Below are positions 12,922 to 64,000 of a stretch of 64,000 nt of DNA, piece by piece; position 1 is the stretch's first letter; each line of letters opens with the position of its first letter. A model generated the notes under the pieces. The model ran no database searches. It was not told the origin of the DNA and saw only the letters and a list, made by a program, of their open reading frames with translations. This stretch comes from Parcubacteria group bacterium 21-54-25 (GTDB lineage: Bacteria; Patescibacteriota; Minisyncoccia; Phycocordibacterales; Phycocordibacteraceae). The stretch is taken from contig NCBJ01000004.1 of assembly GCA_002255585.1 (NCBI GenBank), positions 6,415-70,414 of the forward strand, written 5' to 3'. A program made the translations under genes and the position numbers.

Positions 12922-13030
12922 AAAGAAATACTATGTAGTGTTGCTAAGCGCGCCGGTGCAGTGAAAAAGTCCGTAGGACTTGGCCAAGCGGCCCGGAGCG
13001 TGGACTTCTTTCGCTGCACCGGCCCGCGCC

Positions 13031-13582
13031 TTAGTCATGCTCCTGTTTCAATAAGTCAGCGAATTGCTTTTTCACTTTCTCAAGCTTTGGGTTTATGACC
13101 AGCTCGCAGTACGGCGCGCCCGGATTTACAGCGAAGTAGTCGTGATGATACTGCTCGGCTTCGTAGAAATTCGTGAGCGGTTCTACCTCCGTCACGACCG
13201 GCGCGCCCTCCGCGTTTGACGTGTTTATTTCCGCGAGGCACTGTTCTGCGGCTTCTTTCTGTTCGGGCGTCGTATAGAAAATCACCGAACGGTACTGTGT
13301 ACCTACGTCTGCACCCTGCTTGTTGCGCGTCGTCGGATCGTGACTACCAAAGAAGATGGTAAGGAGCGTGCGGTAGTCGACGCGCGCCGGATCGTACTCA
13401 ACGCGCACCACTTCGGCGTGGCCCGTCTCCCCTGTCGACACCTGCTCGTACGTGGGGTTCTCCGTCGTACCGCCAGCGTAACCGGGCACTACACGCGAGA
13501 CGCCGTTGAGCATATTGAATACCGCTTCCGTGCACCAAAAACACCCGCCTCCGAACACCGCCACGGCTTTATGAGGATGCAT
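13031..13582 (-). CDS. msrA: Peptide methionine sulfoxide reductase MsrA
   Basis: ORF 13031..13864 has an internal ATG at 13582 (verified) giving MHPHKAVAVFGGGCFWCTEAVF..., which carries the MsrA GCFWC active site. The upstream 94 codons are an ORF-finder extension. Confidence 0.85.
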   Translation of the reverse strand: MHPHKAVAVFGGGCFWCTEAVFNMLNGVSRVVPGYAGGTTENPTYEQVSTGETGHAEVVRVEYDPARVDYRTLLTIFFGSHDPTTRNKQGADVGTQYRSVIFYTTPEQKEAAEQCLAEINTSNAEGAPVVTEVEPLTNFYEAEQYHHDYFAVNPGAPYCELVINPKLEKVKKQFADLLKQEHD

Positions 13583-13939
13583 ACGCGTATGAGTATACAG
13601 TAATAAACAAGGTACGGACGAGATTAGGAGGAACGTTTCTGTATACTTACGGTATACTACGTGTACCTTATGCAACCGCGTACTGGTATAGATAAAAGCA
13701 CTCTTGAAAAGGCGTTGCGTGCCGCCGAAAAGGCGCACGGCGTCTACGAAAAAAGACTTGGGCGACGAGACTCCCGGTGGCCGCGTTGGTATGCAGCGTT
13801 TATGGTGAAATGGCTCCAAAAGAAACACCCTACACGACCGCGCGCAACGCAACGAAACCTCCACAAAAAATAAAACAGCAGCCCGCTAATGTAATTATTT
13901 TGCGACGTGCCACCTCCTGTCACTTCTAGCGAAAAAGCT

Positions 13940-14029
13940 TGGCGGAGACGGTGGGATTCGAACCCACGAGCGCTTTTATACGCTGGCACGTTAGCAGTGT
14001 GCTGGTTTCAACCACTCACCCACGTCTCC
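13940..14029 (-). tRNA. tRNA-Ser (anticodon GCT), type II with long variable arm, CCA encoded
   Basis: Revcomp is GGAGACG-TG-GGT-GAGTGGTTGAA-ACC-A-GCACA-CTGCTAA-CGTGC-[CAGCGTATAAAAGCGCT]-CGTGG-GTTCGAATC-CCAC-CGTCTCC-G-CCA. T-loop GTTCGAATC and G73 are present. Confidence 0.85.
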
Positions 14030-14037
14030 GTACGGCA

Positions 14038-15048
14038 CTATCCTATCGTACTTTTGTATCTTCTCAAATGTTTCGGGTTATGACTCCCGATTACTGAAAA
14101 ATAACGCTTCACATCCGCGATACGATCCAGACGCACGTCATCGTGCGAACCGAGCCGTGGATGAAATCCGTGCGCACACAGTGCATCGCATATAGACCGG
14201 CGCAGTGGTTCCGAAGCGCTCGTGAACGAGAGTTTCTTATATGTGTAAGTTTTGCCTTTAACACGATACCGGTGCGTGAAAACACTTCCGTCAGTATCAA
14301 AGAGTCCGCGTAGACACGCGCTCGAGAATGCCTCGTTTTTCTTTACCCACGGCGGCATATCAAATCGCTGCTTGATTTTATTTCCTATCGGCAGACCTAG
14401 CCCGTGCAGATAATCGACCAAGTGCTTCCTTGAAACGACGATGTTGCACACCGACTTCTTCGGCGTGTGATATGTGCTTGGCGCAATTTCAAAAAGACTC
14501 TCGATGAGCGATTCGACAAAAGAAGTGTATTCGCGATCATCGATGTGGTGAAGCGTGACGGCAACCTGGTATGTGCTCATGCCGCCGTCACCCATCATAA
14601 TGCCGATGAACTCTGCAAGCATGGCGCTCCTTGCTGGTTTGTGGATGATTTTTGGTGCAAGGATCGAATGTTGCTTATGCTTCCCTACCTTGTTCCACCA
14701 CGCGCGCCACCGTGCACTTCGACATGCCTCATCGTGCGGGATGCATCCGTATTTTTGTATCGTTGCGGCAGCGCCCGTCTTACCAGCCCGCGCGGTGTGC
14801 GCATACGCATCGCGAACACGCATACGCGCGGGCACGGAAACACCGGTTTTTGCAGAGAGCGCCTGCACAGCAAAAAGCGGCATTGAAAATTTCTCCCGCC
14901 GCCAGTCTCGAACGGTACGTTCTGAGCACTGGCACAGGTGCGCCATGTCTGCAACCGTCAGTCTATCGCTGATGTGTTTGAAAAACGCTTCTTGTACACC
15001 TTTCTGGAACACGACTCTCTTAAATAAACGATTCCGCCATGCCTCCAT
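14038..15048 (-). CDS. HTH domain fused to a double-motif LAGLIDADG homing-endonuclease-like protein
   Basis: Two LAGLIDADG-type motifs (FIGIMMGDGGMS and LRGLFDTDGSVF) about 100 aa apart. The N-terminal ~100 aa are HTH-like (LTVADMAHLCQCSERTVRDWRREK). Start set to the ATG at 15048 (MEAWRNRL...); the ORF track extends to 15141. Abuts tRNA-Ser with a 9-nt gap. Confidence 0.7.
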   Translation of the reverse strand: MEAWRNRLFKRVVFQKGVQEAFFKHISDRLTVADMAHLCQCSERTVRDWRREKFSMPLFAVQALSAKTGVSVPARMRVRDAYAHTARAGKTGAAATIQKYGCIPHDEACRSARWRAWWNKVGKHKQHSILAPKIIHKPARSAMLAEFIGIMMGDGGMSTYQVAVTLHHIDDREYTSFVESLIESLFEIAPSTYHTPKKSVCNIVVSRKHLVDYLHGLGLPIGNKIKQRFDMPPWVKKNEAFSSACLRGLFDTDGSVFTHRYRVKGKTYTYKKLSFTSASEPLRRSICDALCAHGFHPRLGSHDDVRLDRIADVKRYFSVIGSHNPKHLRRYKSTIG

Positions 15049-15091
15049 TTTATCACGACCACATTCGAATCGCGTGCGCGACCGCTGGCCT

Positions 15092-15313
15092 CTAGAGCCC
15101 AAGTCTCGACGCGAGTTTGAAGCCGACCCAAATGCCGACAAAACCGCCCACCGCAGTGAGTAGCACCGAGCTCATGGAGAAAAACATATTGCCGCCCCAG
15201 AGGCCCGGCGTCATGCTGCCAAGCGTGGAGCCAATGAAAAGTCCAGCCCAAATAAATTTCTTGCGCGTAAACATTAGTAATAAGTATGCCATATAAAACA
15301 CGCAAACCGACAA
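15092..15313 (-). CDS. Small GlsB/YeaQ/YmgE-family-like membrane protein
   Basis: 73 aa. Gly-rich double-TM pattern (IWAGLFIGSTLGSMTPGLWGGNMFFSMSSVLLTAVGGFVGIWVGF) resembling transglycosylase-associated/YeaQ proteins. The larger overlapping ORF 14958..15407 is judged spurious. Confidence 0.45.
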   Translation of the reverse strand: MSVCVFYMAYLLLMFTRKKFIWAGLFIGSTLGSMTPGLWGGNMFFSMSSVLLTAVGGFVGIWVGFKLASRLGL

Positions 15314-15342
15314 AAGTCGGCCTGTGGATTGTGCAGCAGAAT

Positions 15343-15525
15343 CTAGTGGGCAACGGGCGCAAGCTGGGTTGCGGCGACTGCAAAATGCGACGCGGCAAGC
15401 AGTGCAACTCGAATGCCGTGTAGTGCTACGAGAATCGTCTGCGTAAGTGACGTAAAGATCTCGGGGACGAGCGCTTTGAGAATGAGTATCGTCAGTCCGA
15501 GACCGAGCGCGCCGAATATTTTCAT
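15343..15525 (-). CDS. Small hydrophobic hypothetical protein (60 aa)
   Basis: Single predicted TM-like segment. No recognisable motif. Weak call. Confidence 0.2.
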   Translation of the reverse strand: MKIFGALGLGLTILILKALVPEIFTSLTQTILVALHGIRVALLAASHFAVAATQLAPVAH

Positions 15526-15657
15526 AGGCGTGGACGGTGATGGCTAAGCGGTGCTCTGTGCGAACGCCGCAAGACGAGTGAGTCGTCTCAGTGCTCGTGC
15601 CCGTGCGTCGCGAAGCGGCGCACGCAAGGTGCTTCCTATGTATGTAAACCCCGAGAA

Positions 15658-16113
15658 ATGTATACTGGTTACACGATGGAAACTTCGCGTTCAGCAGGCG
15701 GCGTCGTTCTTGGTGATCAAGGCACCATTGTGCTTGTGCGCGTGCGCGAGGGTGACGGTGCGCTGCTGTTCCCCAAAGGCCACGTAGAGCCAGGCGAAAC
15801 GGACGAAGAGGCGGCGCGACGGGAAATCCAAGAAGAGACGGGGCTCGCTAATATTGAATTTATCGACGACTTGGGCAGCTACACGCGCCCGCACATACGG
15901 AAAGACGGCTCTCTGAATGAGAACGAGCAAAAGGAAATTCATATGTTCCTCTTTGCTGCACCGCCGGGCGCCACGCTCGCGCCCACGATGGAAATTGAAC
16001 ACGTCGAGTGGGTTCCCTACCGCGAAGTCGCCGCGCGCCTTGGCAACACAGCAGACCGCGCCTGGTTCGCCACCATCTTCGACCGTGTCCGAGAGGCCGT
16101 GCAACGGGATTAA
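15658..16113 (+). CDS. NUDIX hydrolase
   Basis: 151 aa with Nudix box GHVEPGETDEEAARREIQEETGL (GX5EX7REUXEEXGU). Confidence 0.85.
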   Translation: MYTGYTMETSRSAGGVVLGDQGTIVLVRVREGDGALLFPKGHVEPGETDEEAARREIQEETGLANIEFIDDLGSYTRPHIRKDGSLNENEQKEIHMFLFAAPPGATLAPTMEIEHVEWVPYREVAARLGNTADRAWFATIFDRVREAVQRD

Positions 16114-16121
16114 TACGTTAC

Positions 16122-17222
16122 ATGAAGAAGAACATCAACGCGGTCTATCTGATGCATTCCTTGAACAGTCTCGCTGGCTCGTTCATCGGTATCTTCATCC
16201 CGATTTACCTCCTTACACTGCACTACCCCGTGAGCACAGTATTTGAATATTACCTTGGACTGTATGTTGCCATATTTTTCCTCTTCATATTTGCGAGCTT
16301 CATTGCGCGACGGCTCGGGTTGAAACGCACCCTGCTCGTCTATTTCCCGTTCCAACTTCTCTATCTCGGCCTCCTCTACACGCTCCCGCACACGACCATA
16401 CCGCTTTGGATAATCGCGGGCGTAAACGCGATTGCCGTTGCGTTCTATTGGTACCCGCTCCATCTTTTTTTCGTCACCCAAGCACAAAAGAAAGAAATGG
16501 GCGAATCTGTCGGCAAACTCTATGCTCTACCGAAACTCGTTACTATCGCGTCACCACTTATCGGTGCATTCATAGCGATTCAGGGCGGCTTTCCCCTCCT
16601 GTTCGCAATCACCATAGTGCTCTATCTCATCGTATCCATATCTCTTCTATACTTGCCCGATAGTCGCCCGGCTATACAATTCCAATTCGGCAAATTTGTC
16701 GCGTTGGCGCGCCGCTATCCACGCTATATCCTCGCAGAAATTGGTGAGAATATACGCGAAGAGGTAGGAGGTCTTGTGCTGCCTATCGTGATATTCCTTA
16801 CGTTCGACAGCATTCTTTCCGTCGGTGTTGTAGGTGTGCTTACAAAAATAGGTAGTGCTTTGTTCATTCTTCTCATCGGTCGCTATGCCGATCGGCTGAA
16901 GCGCACGAGCATCCTGCGCGTCGGTGCGATTATCACCATGGCCATCTGGGCTGTGTTCTTTTTTGCTCACCGTGAGGTGTCCTTCTATGCCCTGACCTTG
17001 TTCGTGGGATTTTTTGGCGCGCTACTACTTATTCCGTTTAATGCGCTTGTGTATGATTACGCGCAAGAGAGCGCGGCGCCAGCAGAGTTCATCGTCTTCC
17101 GCGAGGTGCCTGTGACGCTCGCGCGGGTGTTTGTGTACGGTACCGGCCTGCTGTTTGTAAGCTCGCTTAACTACCTCTTTCTCCTCCCCGTCTTTGGCAG
17201 TTTGTTCTTTTGGGTGCTGTAG
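16122..17222 (+). CDS. MFS-type transporter (about 12 TM)
   Basis: Start set to the ATG at 16122 (MKKNINAVYLMHSL...), directly after the NUDIX stop at 16111-16113. Polytopic membrane protein with MFS-like helix pattern. The ORF-finder start at 16008 overlaps NUDIX. Confidence 0.6.
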   Translation: MKKNINAVYLMHSLNSLAGSFIGIFIPIYLLTLHYPVSTVFEYYLGLYVAIFFLFIFASFIARRLGLKRTLLVYFPFQLLYLGLLYTLPHTTIPLWIIAGVNAIAVAFYWYPLHLFFVTQAQKKEMGESVGKLYALPKLVTIASPLIGAFIAIQGGFPLLFAITIVLYLIVSISLLYLPDSRPAIQFQFGKFVALARRYPRYILAEIGENIREEVGGLVLPIVIFLTFDSILSVGVVGVLTKIGSALFILLIGRYADRLKRTSILRVGAIITMAIWAVFFFAHREVSFYALTLFVGFFGALLLIPFNALVYDYAQESAAPAEFIVFREVPVTLARVFVYGTGLLFVSSLNYLFLLPVFGSLFFWVL

Positions 17223-22351: not shown

Positions 22352-22383
22352 CACCGATCGATTGGAGTATATGGTCGTTTTTG

Positions 22384-22457
22384 TGGGCGTACCAGGACTC
22401 GAACCTGGAACCGCTGAGGTATAAGCTCAGTGCTCTAACCAATTGAGCTATACGCCC
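22384..22457 (-). tRNA. tRNA-Ile (anticodon UAU), 74 nt, CCA not encoded
   Basis: Revcomp is GGGCGTA-TA-GCTC-AATTGGTTA-GAGC-A-CTGAG-CTTATAC-CTCAG-CGGTT-CCAGG-TTCGAGT-CCTGG-TACGCCC-A. Anticodon loop CUUAUAC gives anticodon UAU. Confidence 0.8.
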
Positions 22458-22547: not shown

Positions 22548-22889
22548 CTAAACCCGCATAAAGCGAACGCCAAATAGGGTATTGACGAGCGCGAGGAGAA
22601 GTGCGAAAAGAAACGCGGTGCCAAAACCAGAAACCGAGAAGCCCGGCACAAGCGCCGCGGCACCCAGTATGATGAGTGCGTTTATGACGAGTGAGAAAAG
22701 CCCGAGCGTGAGAATCGTGAACGGTAGGGTGAGCACCGTAATGATTGGCCGAATAAATAGGTTGATGAGCGCAAGCACCGCAGCGAGCACTAGCGCGCCC
22801 ACGAGCGTCACCTGGACGCCGGGCACGAGGTACGCCGCAATGCCAATCGCAAGTGCTGCAACGAGCCAGTGGAGAAGCGTATGAATCAT
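22548..22889 (-). CDS. Phage_holin_4_2 (PF04020)-like 4-TM membrane protein
   Basis: 113 aa from the ATG at 22889 (MIHTLLHWLVAALAIGIAAYLVPGV...LTLPFTILTLGLFSLVINAL...), matching the conserved PF04020 pattern. The upstream ORF extension is discarded. Confidence 0.6.
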   Translation of the reverse strand: MIHTLLHWLVAALAIGIAAYLVPGVQVTLVGALVLAAVLALINLFIRPIITVLTLPFTILTLGLFSLVINALIILGAAALVPGFSVSGFGTAFLFALLLALVNTLFGVRFMRV

Positions 22890-22956
22890 GCGCGTAGCAT
22901 AGCATGGAGCAACCGCTCGTGCCGTCTGCTCGTGTTGCCTGCAAAGGTATGCTCTA

Positions 22957-23583
22957 ATGGGGCACATGCTGCACTTTTTACAGGAGCTTGTGTTTAATCC
23001 CGCCGCGGTTGTGACTGCGGCGGGATACTTGGGTGTCTCGCTCATCATTTTCGCCGAAACAGGCATTCTGCTTGGCATTTTCTTACCGGGCGATAGCCTG
23101 CTTTTTGCTGCGGGGCTCGTGGCTTCACAAGGCGTGTTGGACCCTGTCGCACTTGCAGCACTCGTCGCGCTCGCGGCAATTGCGGGAGACGCAACCGGCT
23201 ACTGGATCGGCCGCGCTGGAGGCGAGGCCGTACTTGGTCGCTATCCGCGCCTCATAAAGCCAGAACATATCGAGCGAACAGAACAGTTTTACGCGCGCTG
23301 GGGGGCGCGCGCGGTTGTGCTTGCGCGGTTCGTGCCAATCGTGCGTACGATCGTGCCCGTTCTGGCCGGCGTCGGCCGCATGCGCTACGATCGTTTCTTT
23401 CCGTTCAACGTCATTGGTGGCATTTTGTGGGGGCCGCTTGTGATCGCGCTTGGCTACTTTCTAGGACGCAGCATTCCTAATGCCGCACATTATCTGTTGC
23501 CCTTAAGCCTCCTTATCGTCCTCATTTCTTTCCTGCCCTTTTTCATACGCCTCGTACGCAATCGGCGAATGCGCAGCAGCTAG
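22957..23583 (+). CDS. DedA-family membrane protein (SNARE-associated/VTT domain)
   Basis: 208 aa. Hallmark motifs GYLGVSLIIFAETGILLGIFLPGDSLLFAAG and RFVPIVRTIVPVLAGV. Confidence 0.8.
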   Translation: MGHMLHFLQELVFNPAAVVTAAGYLGVSLIIFAETGILLGIFLPGDSLLFAAGLVASQGVLDPVALAALVALAAIAGDATGYWIGRAGGEAVLGRYPRLIKPEHIERTEQFYARWGARAVVLARFVPIVRTIVPVLAGVGRMRYDRFFPFNVIGGILWGPLVIALGYFLGRSIPNAAHYLLPLSLLIVLISFLPFFIRLVRNRRMRSS

Positions 23584-62111: not shown

Positions 62112-62521
62112 GGGGGTGACCGGCTTTGACGGTCTGTACCTTGAGAATGCGCGACGCGGTGCACGCTCACTTACCACCTAAAACTAGTGAGCACCTAAAC
62201 GTGCCAAGAAATCTCTTGCACGCGCAGTGTCGCCATACTTCGGTATGAACGACTTTGCGTTCGCGGCAGTGACGGCTCGAGCGTAAGCTCGCCTCGCTCT
62301 CGCGACGTCTCCCTACCTTGCGTTTGCAGGGGGTAGTCGAGGCGGAATGTACTGCATACTCGACGTGCGCGCGCCCACGCGTACTGTCTAAATTTTGGGA
62401 TCCGACAGGAGTGATTTTGTTTCAGTTCCTCGCACCCTGTCCTAGCTTCAACTGAAACTACGCGTCGTAGAAGCACCTCATGGTCCGGATTCGGACGGGA
62501 GTTCGATTCTCCCCACCTCCA
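62112..62521 (+). ncRNA. ssrA: tmRNA (ssrA)
   Basis: 5' end GGGGGUGACCGGCUUUGACGG. 3' end GGACGGGAGUUCGAUUCUCCCCACCUCCA, i.e. T-arm plus acceptor with the G3-U70 Ala identity pair. CCA not encoded. A candidate tag reading frame ends at TAA 62284-62286 (...NDFAFAAVTARA); the resume codon is uncertain. Confidence 0.8.
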
Positions 62522-64000
62522 CATCTTGTGAATTCTTGGTAGCAAACTGCTCAAAAAGGCCGATAAATGGCGACTTTAGCGCGGTTTCAAATCCAAACTT
62601 TGGATGGAATGCCAATCGTTCCGCAAAGAGTAGTTTTAGAACTACTCTTTTTGCGTTTATGTCTCGCTTTTCCCAGATAACTAGCGGGTTTTCTAGGAAG
62701 TTGAGTACGACCTCTAGTGCGGTTTCAAAACTCACGGATGAGACGCCCAGCCCTTTCATCCGCTCTTGCAAGAGATCGCCTTCGCTTCGGTATTTCGCGA
62801 TCTGTTCCTCGTATGCGCTGATCACCCTTTCGTCTACCGCCTTCACGACACGTCCAGCGAGAACATCCACCTGACGCCGCGTTTCCTTCAGCTTCGTCTC
62901 CAAGGATCTTTGTTGCTGCTCAAGAGAACCCACCTTGTGTTCCCACAATTCCAGAACTACGGCTTTAGCGAGACGAATGGCCCCGGGCTTCGGGTAGATG
63001 GACTGGAGGAGTTTTACAAATTCTGCATCGACAAAGTCTCCGCTCACGCTTTTATTGAATCGAACGCAGGATGGGCTCTTGCAGCGATAGAAACGGTACA
63101 TCTTTGATCTGCCTCTCGACCAGCTTGCGGTGAGTGCGCCTTGGCAGAATGGGCACAGGAGGAATCCGCGAAGCGCGAAGTCGAGCGAATCACTTTTCCG
63201 CACAGCCACCCTGCACTTCCCATCCAGTTTTCCCTGCACTTTTTGGAATGTCTCGAGAGAAATGATCGCTTCATGTTGCCCTTTTCTTCTCGAAACTTCC
63301 CACTCCTCACGCTCGACGTATCCCGCGTACACAACTCGTCGAAGAAGACGTCTAACGCCTTCTTGGTAAATCGGTCCGTTGCTGTAGTCTGTAGCACGCA
63401 AGAATTTAACCACGTCCGCCTGCGACAAAAACTTGCCAGAGGCAAATCCTTCAAACACTTCTCTAATGAGGCTGGCCTGCGGTTCATGGGGTTGAAGTAT
63501 CTTCCCATGCGCCGGATCCTTGACCTGCTTGTATCCGGGCGGCGGATAGTGCGGCCAGTACCCTTTCTCTAGGCGAGCTTTCATTTTCTGAATTACCTGG
63601 CGTCTGTTGTTCTTGCGATGGTATTGATTTTGCAACGCCACCATTCCCTCGAACATCTCTCCTTCCGGCGAATCGTCGAAGTTGAAATTCAAACAGAGTG
63701 GTTTAATTCCTCTAGTCTCGAAGGCCTGTCTTAATTTGAAATGAAAAATAACGTCCCTAGCAAACCGGCTCAAATCGTCAAAAATAACCACGTAGTTTCT
63801 ATGGGGATGATTATCTGCATGAGCAAGTAGCCTTTGCATAGCAGGCCTCAGCATAAAATCGCCGCCGCCGGTGAAACTATCTCTAAAGACTTCCTCTACC
63901 TCGTAGCCGTTGGATCTAGCGAACTCTCGGCATCGGTGTTCTTGGCTGTCGAGTCCGTGCCCTTTGACCTGACCCCCAAATTTCAGACCACTCTCTAGAC
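62478..64000 (-). CDS. Large serine recombinase (resolvase/integrase), N-terminus beyond window end
   Basis: The reading frame stays open to position 64000. Upstream in-frame translation gives ...GQVKGHGLDSQEHRCREFARSNGYEVEEVFRDSFTGGGDFMLRPAMQRLL...VVIFDDLSRFARD (resolvase catalytic domain). It is followed by the recombinase domain, a zinc ribbon (CPFCQG...CKSPSC) and a coiled-coil. Its 3' end overlaps the tmRNA 3' end by 44 nt. Confidence 0.8.
   Translation of the reverse strand, partial: LESGLKFGGQVKGHGLDSQEHRCREFARSNGYEVEEVFRDSFTGGGDFMLRPAMQRLLAHADNHPHRNYVVIFDDLSRFARDVIFHFKLRQAFETRGIKPLCLNFNFDDSPEGEMFEGMVALQNQYHRKNNRRQVIQKMKARLEKGYWPHYPPPGYKQVKDPAHGKILQPHEPQASLIREVFEGFASGKFLSQADVVKFLRATDYSNGPIYQEGVRRLLRRVVYAGYVEREEWEVSRRKGQHEAIISLETFQKVQGKLDGKCRVAVRKSDSLDFALRGFLLCPFCQGALTASWSRGRSKMYRFYRCKSPSCVRFNKSVSGDFVDAEFVKLLQSIYPKPGAIRLAKAVVLELWEHKVGSLEQQQRSLETKLKETRRQVDVLAGRVVKAVDERVISAYEEQIAKYRSEGDLLQERMKGLGVSSVSFETALEVVLNFLENPLVIWEKRDINAKRVVLKLLFAERLAFHPKFGFETALKSPFIGLFEQFATKNSQDVEVGRIELPSESGP

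Follow-up and report, generated by a model that had tools for sequence, protein, structure and literature searches.

Introduction

Most bacterial LAGLIDADG genes reside in introns or inteins. Phage Seg and Mob enzymes, which carry out intronless homing, spread by cutting gene-less alleles and co-converting flanking markers, and the free-standing LAGLIDADG open reading frames (ORFs) of mitochondria are inserted at the ends of host genes, part of which they duplicate. The domesticated bacterial transcription factor WhiA carries its helix-turn-helix (HTH) domain at the C-terminus, behind degenerate LAGLIDADG domains, and has lost its catalytic residues. T4 SegB is encoded in a phage tRNA cluster (PMC13096335), and the LAGLIDADG genes described in the candidate phyla radiation (CPR) lie inside 16S and 23S rRNA genes, in an account that mentions neither tRNA-associated nor free-standing genes (PMC11270868). 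Free-standing LAGLIDADG homing genes of bacterial chromosomes are little documented, and we describe here one family that is linked to an essential tRNA across hundreds of CPR species. Our starting point is a gene that ends directly before tRNA-Ser(GCT) in a stretch of 64,000 nucleotides (nt) from Parcubacteria group bacterium 21-54-25 (contig NCBJ01000004.1, positions 6,415 to 70,414), which we refer to as the window.

We consider this gene to be, with somewhat better than even probability, a live, free-standing LAGLIDADG homing-endonuclease cassette with tRNA-Ser(GCT) in Parcubacteria/Paceibacteria of the CPR, whose cleavage activity and target are predicted. Full-text searching of the literature found neither this family nor a LAGLIDADG/tRNA-Ser linkage in the CPR described.

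Results

The gene, the tRNA and the protein

The endonuclease ORF and tRNA-Ser(GCT) both lie on the minus strand of the window. The raw ORF covers 14038..15141 (-), with a TTG start and 367 amino acids (aa), and the coding frame that matches homologs is 14038..15048 (-), which begins at an internal ATG at 15048, comprises 336 codons and ends with the stop codon TAG at 14040-14038. We took ATG 15048 as the start of the long frame because the homologs, which cover 89% of the 367-aa ORF, are about 333 aa long and align from there. The tRNA-Ser(GCT) gene (13940..14029, -) is detected by ARAGORN and by Rfam (RF00005, 54.5 bits), aligns with 78 orthologous tRNAs, and is an intact, intron-free class II tRNA gene with an encoded CCA. 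Its 5' end lies 8 nt from the stop codon. An earlier note, made by a model from the sequence of this DNA, had described the same-strand abutment, which we confirm, with a gap of 9 nt, which we correct. Searching the whole window with the endonuclease by tblastn did not reveal a second copy.

The protein is composed of an XRE-like HTH domain, a helical linker and a monomeric double-LAGLIDADG domain in which the catalytic aspartate pair is kept. The nuclease domain (aa 141-336; 14041..14628, -) is recognized by Foldseek, by a profile search of the PDB and by the Pfam LAGLIDADG_3 hidden Markov model (HMM; PF14528), which matches above its gathering score with an E-value of 1.7e-6. As read from the sequence, motif 1, LAEFIGIMMGDGG, lies at 14581-14619 (-) with catalytic D154, and motif 2, LRGLFDTDGS, at 14284-14313 (-) with catalytic D253. 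A profile of 30 homologs matches the I-Tsp061I structure 2dch in the PDB with an E-value of 1.1e-6. The AlphaFold model of the full protein has a predicted local distance difference test score (pLDDT) of 91.7, and Foldseek places its residues ~140-336 on the same structure with an E-value of 1.7e-12, a template modelling (TM) score to the target of 0.78 and a root-mean-square deviation of 3.1. There are 100 Foldseek matches in the PDB at E<=0.001, and later matches are intein endonucleases, I-AniI, the bI3 maturase, WhiA (8dy9_I), I-DmoI and the I-OnuI group. The model and these matches agree on a tandem alpha-beta-beta-alpha-beta-beta-alpha fold of the DNA-saddle type. Neither D154 nor D253 varies among 30 diverse homologs, and in a set of 103 sequences each is conserved to at least 95%; the window protein retains every invariant residue of the 30-sequence alignment. 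The two motifs that the earlier note had pointed out, each ending in an aspartate, are where it had placed them, and Pfam, the profile, the fold and the conservation exclude a chance match.

The N-terminal region is likely to be an HTH DNA-binding domain, as judged from structure prediction. The XRE-like domain spans aa 1-75 (14824..15048, -), with its HTH helices at aa 32-50 (14899-14955, -), and the full-length model has helices at residues 18-27, 32-38, 43-50 and 58-68. When residues 1-128 were modelled separately, the pLDDT was 91 and the first ~70 residues formed a confident helical domain, for which Foldseek retrieved P22 c2, DdrO, SinR and C-proteins with TM scores to the target of 0.6-0.68 over 55-60 residues; the E-values of these XRE-type matches were 0.05-0.3, and none reached 0.001. 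The HTH-like segment of the earlier note is made likely by the predicted domain and is weakly supported by sequence, since Pfam HTH_17, HTH_29, HTH_23 and HTH_28, which match weakly at aa 55-84 of the 367-aa ORF, all fall below the Pfam cut-offs. In the 30-sequence alignment, CSERTxRDWRREKF in the HTH domain is nearly invariant and W114, W117 and W118 of the linker are invariant. The linker (aa 76-140; 14629..14823, -), delimited by the model and by these invariant columns, has helices at residues 83-100 and 107-122 and then a lower-confidence coil, with dips in pLDDT at aa 101-110 and 121-130.

Linkage of the family to tRNA-Ser

A word-indexed search returned 878 relatives, the best 120 of which are 50-64% identical to the window protein, are about 330-333 aa long, come from metagenome-assembled genomes (MAGs) of Paceibacteria, Kaiserbacteria and Parcubacteria, and, if named at all, are mostly called 'LAGLIDADG family homing endonuclease' or 'hypothetical protein'. 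Scanning 1.84 billion representatives with HMMER gave 616 clusters at 50% identity (E<=1e-30), nearly all of them full length. A scan with one genome per species gave 528 loci, which include Kaiser-, Yanofsky-, Nealson-, Lipton-, Yonath-, Sung- and Moranbacteria as well as Uhr-, Andersen-, Jorgensen-, Staskawicz-, Colwell- and Harrisonbacteria. Pairwise ratios of non-synonymous to synonymous substitution rates (dN/dS) over the whole ORF are 0.08-0.17, which indicates that the family is under strong purifying selection.

We scored linkage in the best 80 of the 528 species-level loci, 78 of which have enough downstream sequence. In 76 of the 78, tRNA-Ser(GCT) follows the gene directly and on the same strand, at an offset of -15 to +42 nt from the stop codon with a mode of 17-22 nt. 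The other two (L071 and L077) have tRNA-Ser(TGA) in its place, and since their endonucleases are not mutual closest relatives, the sequences suggest that the TGA-linked genes represent independent relocations to a paralogous tRNA-Ser. A third such case is a C-terminal remnant that abuts tRNA-Ser(TGA) in L187. The upstream neighbours, by contrast, are variable and include a ComF-like gene and pilMNO operon, a divergent tRNA-Arg(GCG), tRNA-Ser(TGA/ACT) or tRNA-Lys. No conserved partner gene besides the tRNA was found in the loci compared. Given variable upstream neighbours and a constant downstream tRNA, the conserved unit is the gene together with the tRNA.

In the window's clade and in Kaiserbacteria (L001, L003, L005, L006 and L226), the module adjoins a gene for a ComF-like phosphoribosyltransferase and a divergent pilM-pilN-pilO-pilB operon. 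Such DNA-uptake and type IV pilus neighbours are a possible candidate route for allele exchange. The window itself has other neighbours in their place: upstream of the gene are two small unannotated ORFs for membrane proteins, followed by a NUDIX gene, a major facilitator superfamily transporter gene and recG, and msrA and msrB are located downstream.

Empty loci, decayed copies and exchange of the cassette

For a comparison with gene-less loci, metagenome contigs were scanned for tRNA-Ser(GCT) genes with one distinctive D-arm, which is seen in 9 of the 78 gene-bearing loci. Among the 107 tRNA-matched loci with enough upstream sequence to be scored, 19 have the gene and 88 do not, and a six-frame HMM search of the available flanks of the gene-less loci found nothing beyond four fragments. 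The gene is therefore not core or universal, and the comparison across relatives that the earlier note had proposed reveals a patchy gene with decayed copies. Another tRNA search pattern, GGAGACGTGGGTGAGYGGNNNAAACC, proved not to be clade-specific, with 16 viral contigs mostly matched at contig ends, and was dropped for the metagenome scan. If the D-arm CGAATGGTAAG were enriched among the empty loci, it might represent a resistant allele and point to the target. Four of the metagenome contigs (L135, L141, L160 and L167), which may derive from CPR chromosomes or from phages, carry dense arrays of 12-28 tRNA genes with the same tRNA-Ser(GCT) D-arm type.

Empty and filled loci are syntenic and differ by ~1 kb. 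The distance from a divergent upstream tRNA-Arg(GCG) to tRNA-Ser(GCT) is 153-255 nt where the gene is absent and 1164-1171 nt where it is present, and the corresponding distances for tRNA-Ser(ACT) are 170 nt and 1147-1152 nt. In 29 'empty' loci, two of which have a 3' remnant only, the flanking proteins share at least 55% identity with those of a filled locus, so these loci are at least as close to it as filled loci whose endonucleases are ~60-65% identical. In one empty locus (L226), the upstream gene is the ComF-like one found in the closest relatives of the window, and the tRNA starts 21 nt past the end of the upstream homology and ~25 nt past the ComF-like stop codon.

A close pair consists of empty L130 and filled L027, the flanks of which are 93% identical over 3.9 kb and 91% identical over 2.3 kb. 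Homology stops 48 nt past the tRNA-Arg gene and restarts in the T-arm of tRNA-Ser(GCT), so that the difference takes in the gene together with the first two-thirds of the tRNA. This pattern of breakpoints is that of allelic replacement of a cassette and not of a simple deletion.

Decayed copies are represented by a frameshifted gene in L138 and by 3' remnants of ~100 C-terminal codons in L165, ~30 in L146 and ~35 in L187. In all four, the retained part is the 3' end next to the tRNA, as would be expected if that end is needed as a promoter.

One genome carries two modules (L086 and L087 on contig QZIY01000024.1, at ~7.2-8.4 and 29.6-30.7 kb), which are convergent, lie 21 kb apart and each include a tRNA-Ser(GCT). 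Their endonucleases are 68% identical at the amino acid level. One module is in the usual recG neighbourhood and the other adjoins mobile-element and defence-like genes, the latter (AAA_15, an SLFN-like helicase, MazG and a zeta toxin) lying beyond the second module. Between them are a large serine recombinase just past the first module, a CI/LexA-like repressor and other genes, and the whole has the look of an integrated element with a module at either end. The two tRNAs have identical 3' halves and different 5' halves. More generally, the tRNA-Ser(GCT) genes of L001-L087 can be sorted by D-arm and anticodon arm into a few discrete types, which recombine apart from the endonuclease clade; the tRNA of L012, for example, has a 5' part like that of L001 and an anticodon arm like that of L013. 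These patterns suggest that the tRNA-Ser(GCT) genes are gene-conversion mosaics, also where the endonucleases of the loci are similar.

Predicted promoters at both ends of the gene

A generic promoter scan found only three promoter-like sites in 13800-15700, one of which, P2 (14040..14067, -), lies in the end of the endonuclease gene and is predicted from the scan and from comparison across the family to be the promoter of tRNA-Ser. Its -35 element, TTGAGA (14067-14062), is formed by the Leu-Arg codons of KHLRRY and is followed by a spacer of 16 nt and by the -10 element TAGGAT (14045-14040), the last base of which also opens the stop codon, and the tRNA begins 10 nt further on. In a family alignment anchored on the C-terminal NPKHL(K/R)RY, the same layout is observed at identical codons in ~60 of 78 loci. 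The codons CAY-TTG-ARR form a -35-like TTGAAA/TTGAGA, a -10-like TAnnnT (TAGGAT, TACGAT, TATAGT, TATAAT and others) follows 16-17 nt later at or just past the stop codon, and the tRNA 5' end is 8-14 nt past the -10. The Leu codon of KHL is TTG in 67 of 76 genes, as compared with 15% of Leu codons elsewhere in these genes (p 1e-44), a preference that indicates a constraint at the nucleotide level. Gene-less loci have a canonical TTGACT-17-TAnnnT at the corresponding place. By this layout, the last ~10 codons of the gene and its stop codon have the architecture of a sigma-70-type promoter of the tRNA, and the abutment appears to be functional, with a predicted tRNA promoter inside the last codons that the earlier note had overlooked.

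At some loci (L077 3848-5059, L071 1688-2798, L051, L066, L076 and L075), the 3' end of the gene extends 5-50 nt into the tRNA and is without the KHL/-35 motif. Based on the overlap and the missing motif, the tRNA at these loci would have to be co-transcribed with the gene and freed by processing.

The start of the gene shows constraint of a similar kind. The extended -10 of the endonuclease gene, P1 (TGaTAAAAT; 15047..15055, -), is predicted from the family alignment, in which 61 of 75 loci have TAnnnT at exactly -12..-7 relative to the start codon and 47 of 75 have TG at -15/-14. The consensus of the start region is TGnTAnAAT-GGAGAT-ATG-GCT-GAA-TCG-TTT-AA. Given a -10 box that ends 6 nt before the ATG and the known geometry of promoters, we infer that the endonuclease mRNA is leaderless or nearly so. 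Codon 4, when it encodes Ser, is TCG in 28 of 28 cases, as compared with 12.7% elsewhere (p 8e-26), and its third base is G in most loci irrespective of the amino acid, which indicates DNA-level constraint on the first codons. The abutment of gene and tRNA would be accounted for by two nucleotide-level constraints, the embedded P2 and a -10 of the gene's own that abuts its start.

The 23 nt from GGAG onward match the canonical tRNA-Ser 5' end at 16 of 23 positions. Comparison of the gene 5' end with each locus's own tRNA gave no significant similarity (median control fraction 0.33); comparison with the best-matching canonical tRNA-Ser 5' halves gave values above those of control windows, in tests that are interdependent. 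These results are a hint that the gene start may derive from a tRNA sequence into which the gene once inserted.

The start of the window copy

As compared with its five closest homologs, the window copy lacks 2 nt at 15023-15026, a few codons downstream of the start that is typical of the family, ATG 15040-15038, which was identified from those homologs and from 75 start regions. Because of the deletion, the frame from ATG 15040 ends at a premature TAA at 15022-15020 (MAESFI*; 15020..15040, -). Only ATG 15048 opens the long frame, and this codon overlaps the -10 box; the body of the window protein is otherwise intact. The window copy may be expressed by read-through, may be at a first step of decay, or may contain a sequencing error.

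Other tRNA features

CCA is encoded in ~40% of the tRNA-Ser(GCT) genes aligned, the rest being without it. Genes for tRNA-Ser with the anticodon ACT (A34) are present in L019 (891-977), L034 (3823-3912), L067 (3810-3900) and L081 (5538-5625), and also in L114/L118/L131, L195, L210 and L161, often in divergent orientation immediately before the endonuclease gene or tRNA-Ser(GCT). To our knowledge, A34 is normally confined in bacteria to tRNA-Arg(ACG), so a tRNA-Ser with ACT is unusual.

The window also encodes a tRNA-Ile with the anticodon TAT (22383-22457, -); in most bacteria AUA is decoded by a lysidine-modified CAT tRNA. Just upstream of this tRNA-Ile and on the same strand is a gene of the Phage_holin_4_2 family (22548-23078), a family that is also found near the endonuclease module in L003 and L086. 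A transfer-messenger RNA (tmRNA) gene lies at 62112-62522 (+; Rfam 77 bits), for which ARAGORN gives the tag VPRNLLHAQCRHTSV. This tag is unlike the usual Ala-rich tags ending in -LAA, and its frame may be mispredicted or atypical.

Discussion

A fixed site beside one tRNA, conserved catalytic aspartates, a pattern of presence, absence and decay, exchange of the cassette together with the tRNA, and occasional capture of paralogous tRNA-Ser genes favour the homing-endonuclease reading over a domesticated factor. Among the three readings offered in the earlier note, a mobile element that targeted the tRNA neighbourhood is the best fit, although it is not the relic that the note had in mind, for the family is intact and strongly constrained. 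As we envisage it, the enzyme would cut gene-less tRNA-Ser loci in or near the 5' part of the tRNA or its promoter, and repair from a gene-bearing allele would copy the cassette in by intronless homing and co-convert part of the tRNA. The HTH domain would add DNA-binding specificity, autoregulate P1, or both. With the tRNA promoter inside its 3' end, the element would be hard to excise cleanly: deletion of the whole gene would cripple an essential tRNA, decay would leave 3' remnants, and clean loss would need replacement by a foreign gene-less allele.

A more far-reaching version of this proposal, which we put forward only tentatively, is a 'tRNA-gene replacement drive', in which a LAGLIDADG enzyme with a repressor-type HTH targets tRNA-Ser, travels with its own tRNA-Ser allele and has appropriated both promoters of the locus. 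The original promoter of the tRNA would now drive a leaderless endonuclease mRNA, the new one would lie in the last codons, and the first 23 nt of the gene, which are conserved, would be left over from the tRNA 5' end into which it inserted. Homing between naturally transformable cells would explain persistence across the Parcubacteria radiation.

Several observations weigh against a homing element. Across 980 locus pairs, endonuclease identity is 8-10 points above that of neighbouring host proteins and tracks flanking-ortholog identity (r 0.61), and the named candidate phyla mostly cluster by endonuclease sequence. The correlation with the flanks and the clustering by lineage make inheritance look mainly vertical, which is compatible with a host function; exceptions to this concordance are the second, 68%-identical module in one genome and the independent tRNA-Ser(TGA) sites. 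The value of 82% empty loci rests on a single D-arm type, which only 9 of 78 filled loci have, and part of the empty loci may come from other CPR classes. Since the tRNA type of L027 resembles those of its relatives, L130 may represent a loss by allelic replacement. Between 21 filled and 74 empty loci with the same D-arm, no column of the tRNA alignment discriminates at p<1e-4, and a determinant of self-immunity inside the tRNA was therefore rejected. Finally, the family scan found no members in IMG/VR viral contigs, and phage carriage was set aside as a candidate after that scan returned only three distant partial LAGLIDADG matches (27-29%).

These observations lead to the strongest rival, a domesticated host protein, which the earlier note had raised as a site-specific DNA-binding or regulatory protein and which we regard as rather unlikely. 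It would be a WhiA-like factor or an HO-like programmed nuclease at the tRNA-Ser locus, accessory in some lineages, that either regulates P1/P2 and the supply of tRNA-Ser(GCT) or guards the locus against integrating elements. Strong purifying selection, a protein that is better conserved than its flanks and correlated with them, and a length and architecture that are uniform across 616 clusters would all fit such a role, as would the repressor-type, XRE-like HTH (whose structural matches are below significance) and the presence of WhiA among the structural matches. In addition, the beta-strand positions known from other LAGLIDADG enzymes to touch DNA show some of the highest conservation, which points to one conserved ligand. 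However, the gene is missing at many loci with near-identical tRNAs and shared synteny, including one genome with 91-93% identical flanks, and decayed copies occur. The catalytic aspartates, which WhiA and most pure maturases do not retain, are invariant here. A conserved partner gene besides the tRNA was not found, and a regulator would need no attachment to one site in each lineage.

The location of P2 within the last codons, and remnants that always retain the 3' end beside the tRNA, could also be explained if the gene were a nuclease-dead passenger that is kept for the -35 of an essential tRNA and is undeletable. This is improbable, because P2 needs only ~40 nt, yet ~330 codons evolve at a dN/dS of ~0.1 with invariant catalytic aspartates, and the truncated remnants show that the remainder is dispensable. 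Least credible is that an intron or intein encodes the gene, or that its product is the maturase of a tRNA intron with missed exons. The bI3 maturase and I-AniI are among its structural matches, and residence in an intron or intein would be the usual bacterial arrangement; against it stand a conserved promoter and start of the gene's own, variable upstream neighbours, and a downstream tRNA that is complete and intron-free. Rfam found no group I or group II intron at E<=1 in 13000-16500, and across the whole window no RNA family besides the tRNA-Ser at the locus reached the gathering score around the gene. An intein was rejected, as there is no Hint or intein Pfam domain, NCBIfam matches cover only the endonuclease part of intein proteins, and the ORF stands alone at ~333 aa in all homologs. 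The earlier note was therefore right to call the gene free-standing, and its suggestion of a maturase-like factor for the tRNA loci fails on an intact, intron-free tRNA and on near-identical tRNA-Ser genes that occur without the gene.

If the gene is a homing endonuclease as we favour, the family offers a system for studying how a selfish nuclease persists in tiny, streamlined genomes, how coding sequence and promoter co-evolve when codon choice is set by a -35 box, and how tRNA genes are exchanged as mosaics between lineages. It also provides an HTH-plus-meganuclease scaffold, the target of which is probably a conserved region of the tRNA gene. The recurrent annotation 'LAGLIDADG family homing endonuclease' in Paceibacteria MAGs would be explained by this family, in which the predicted tRNA-Ser promoters lie inside an ORF.

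The best structural and profile matches are the archaeal rRNA-intron enzymes I-Tsp061I and I-DmoI, which share the ~190-aa double-LAGLIDADG fold with one catalytic acidic residue per motif and are ~22% identical to the window protein. They are, however, intron-encoded and have no N-terminal domain, whereas the window gene is free-standing and encodes ~140 extra residues that include the HTH. WhiA (DUF199) resembles the window protein in being a bacterial chromosomal double-LAGLIDADG scaffold with an HTH, and it is matched by Foldseek; unlike WhiA, the window protein has its HTH at the N-terminus and keeps both aspartates, and its gene is dispensable in relatives. The WhiA Pfam model does not match the window protein, which falls outside that family. 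The LAGLIDADG genes inserted in CPR rRNA belong to the same phylum and superfamily, and homing has likewise been inferred for them from conserved sites. Mitochondrial free-standing LAGLIDADG ORFs are similar in their insertion at the edge of a conserved gene, for which the tRNA-like 23-nt start is suggestive only; they differ in that the host gene here is a tRNA and the function duplicated would be its promoter. The closest functional analogues are the phage Seg and Mob enzymes, which are likewise stand-alone endonuclease genes adjoining tRNA genes. Those are GIY-YIG or HNH enzymes of phages, whereas the window family is a LAGLIDADG family of cellular chromosomes that, unlike them, stays with a single tRNA species throughout a class-level clade and shares the predicted promoter of that tRNA.

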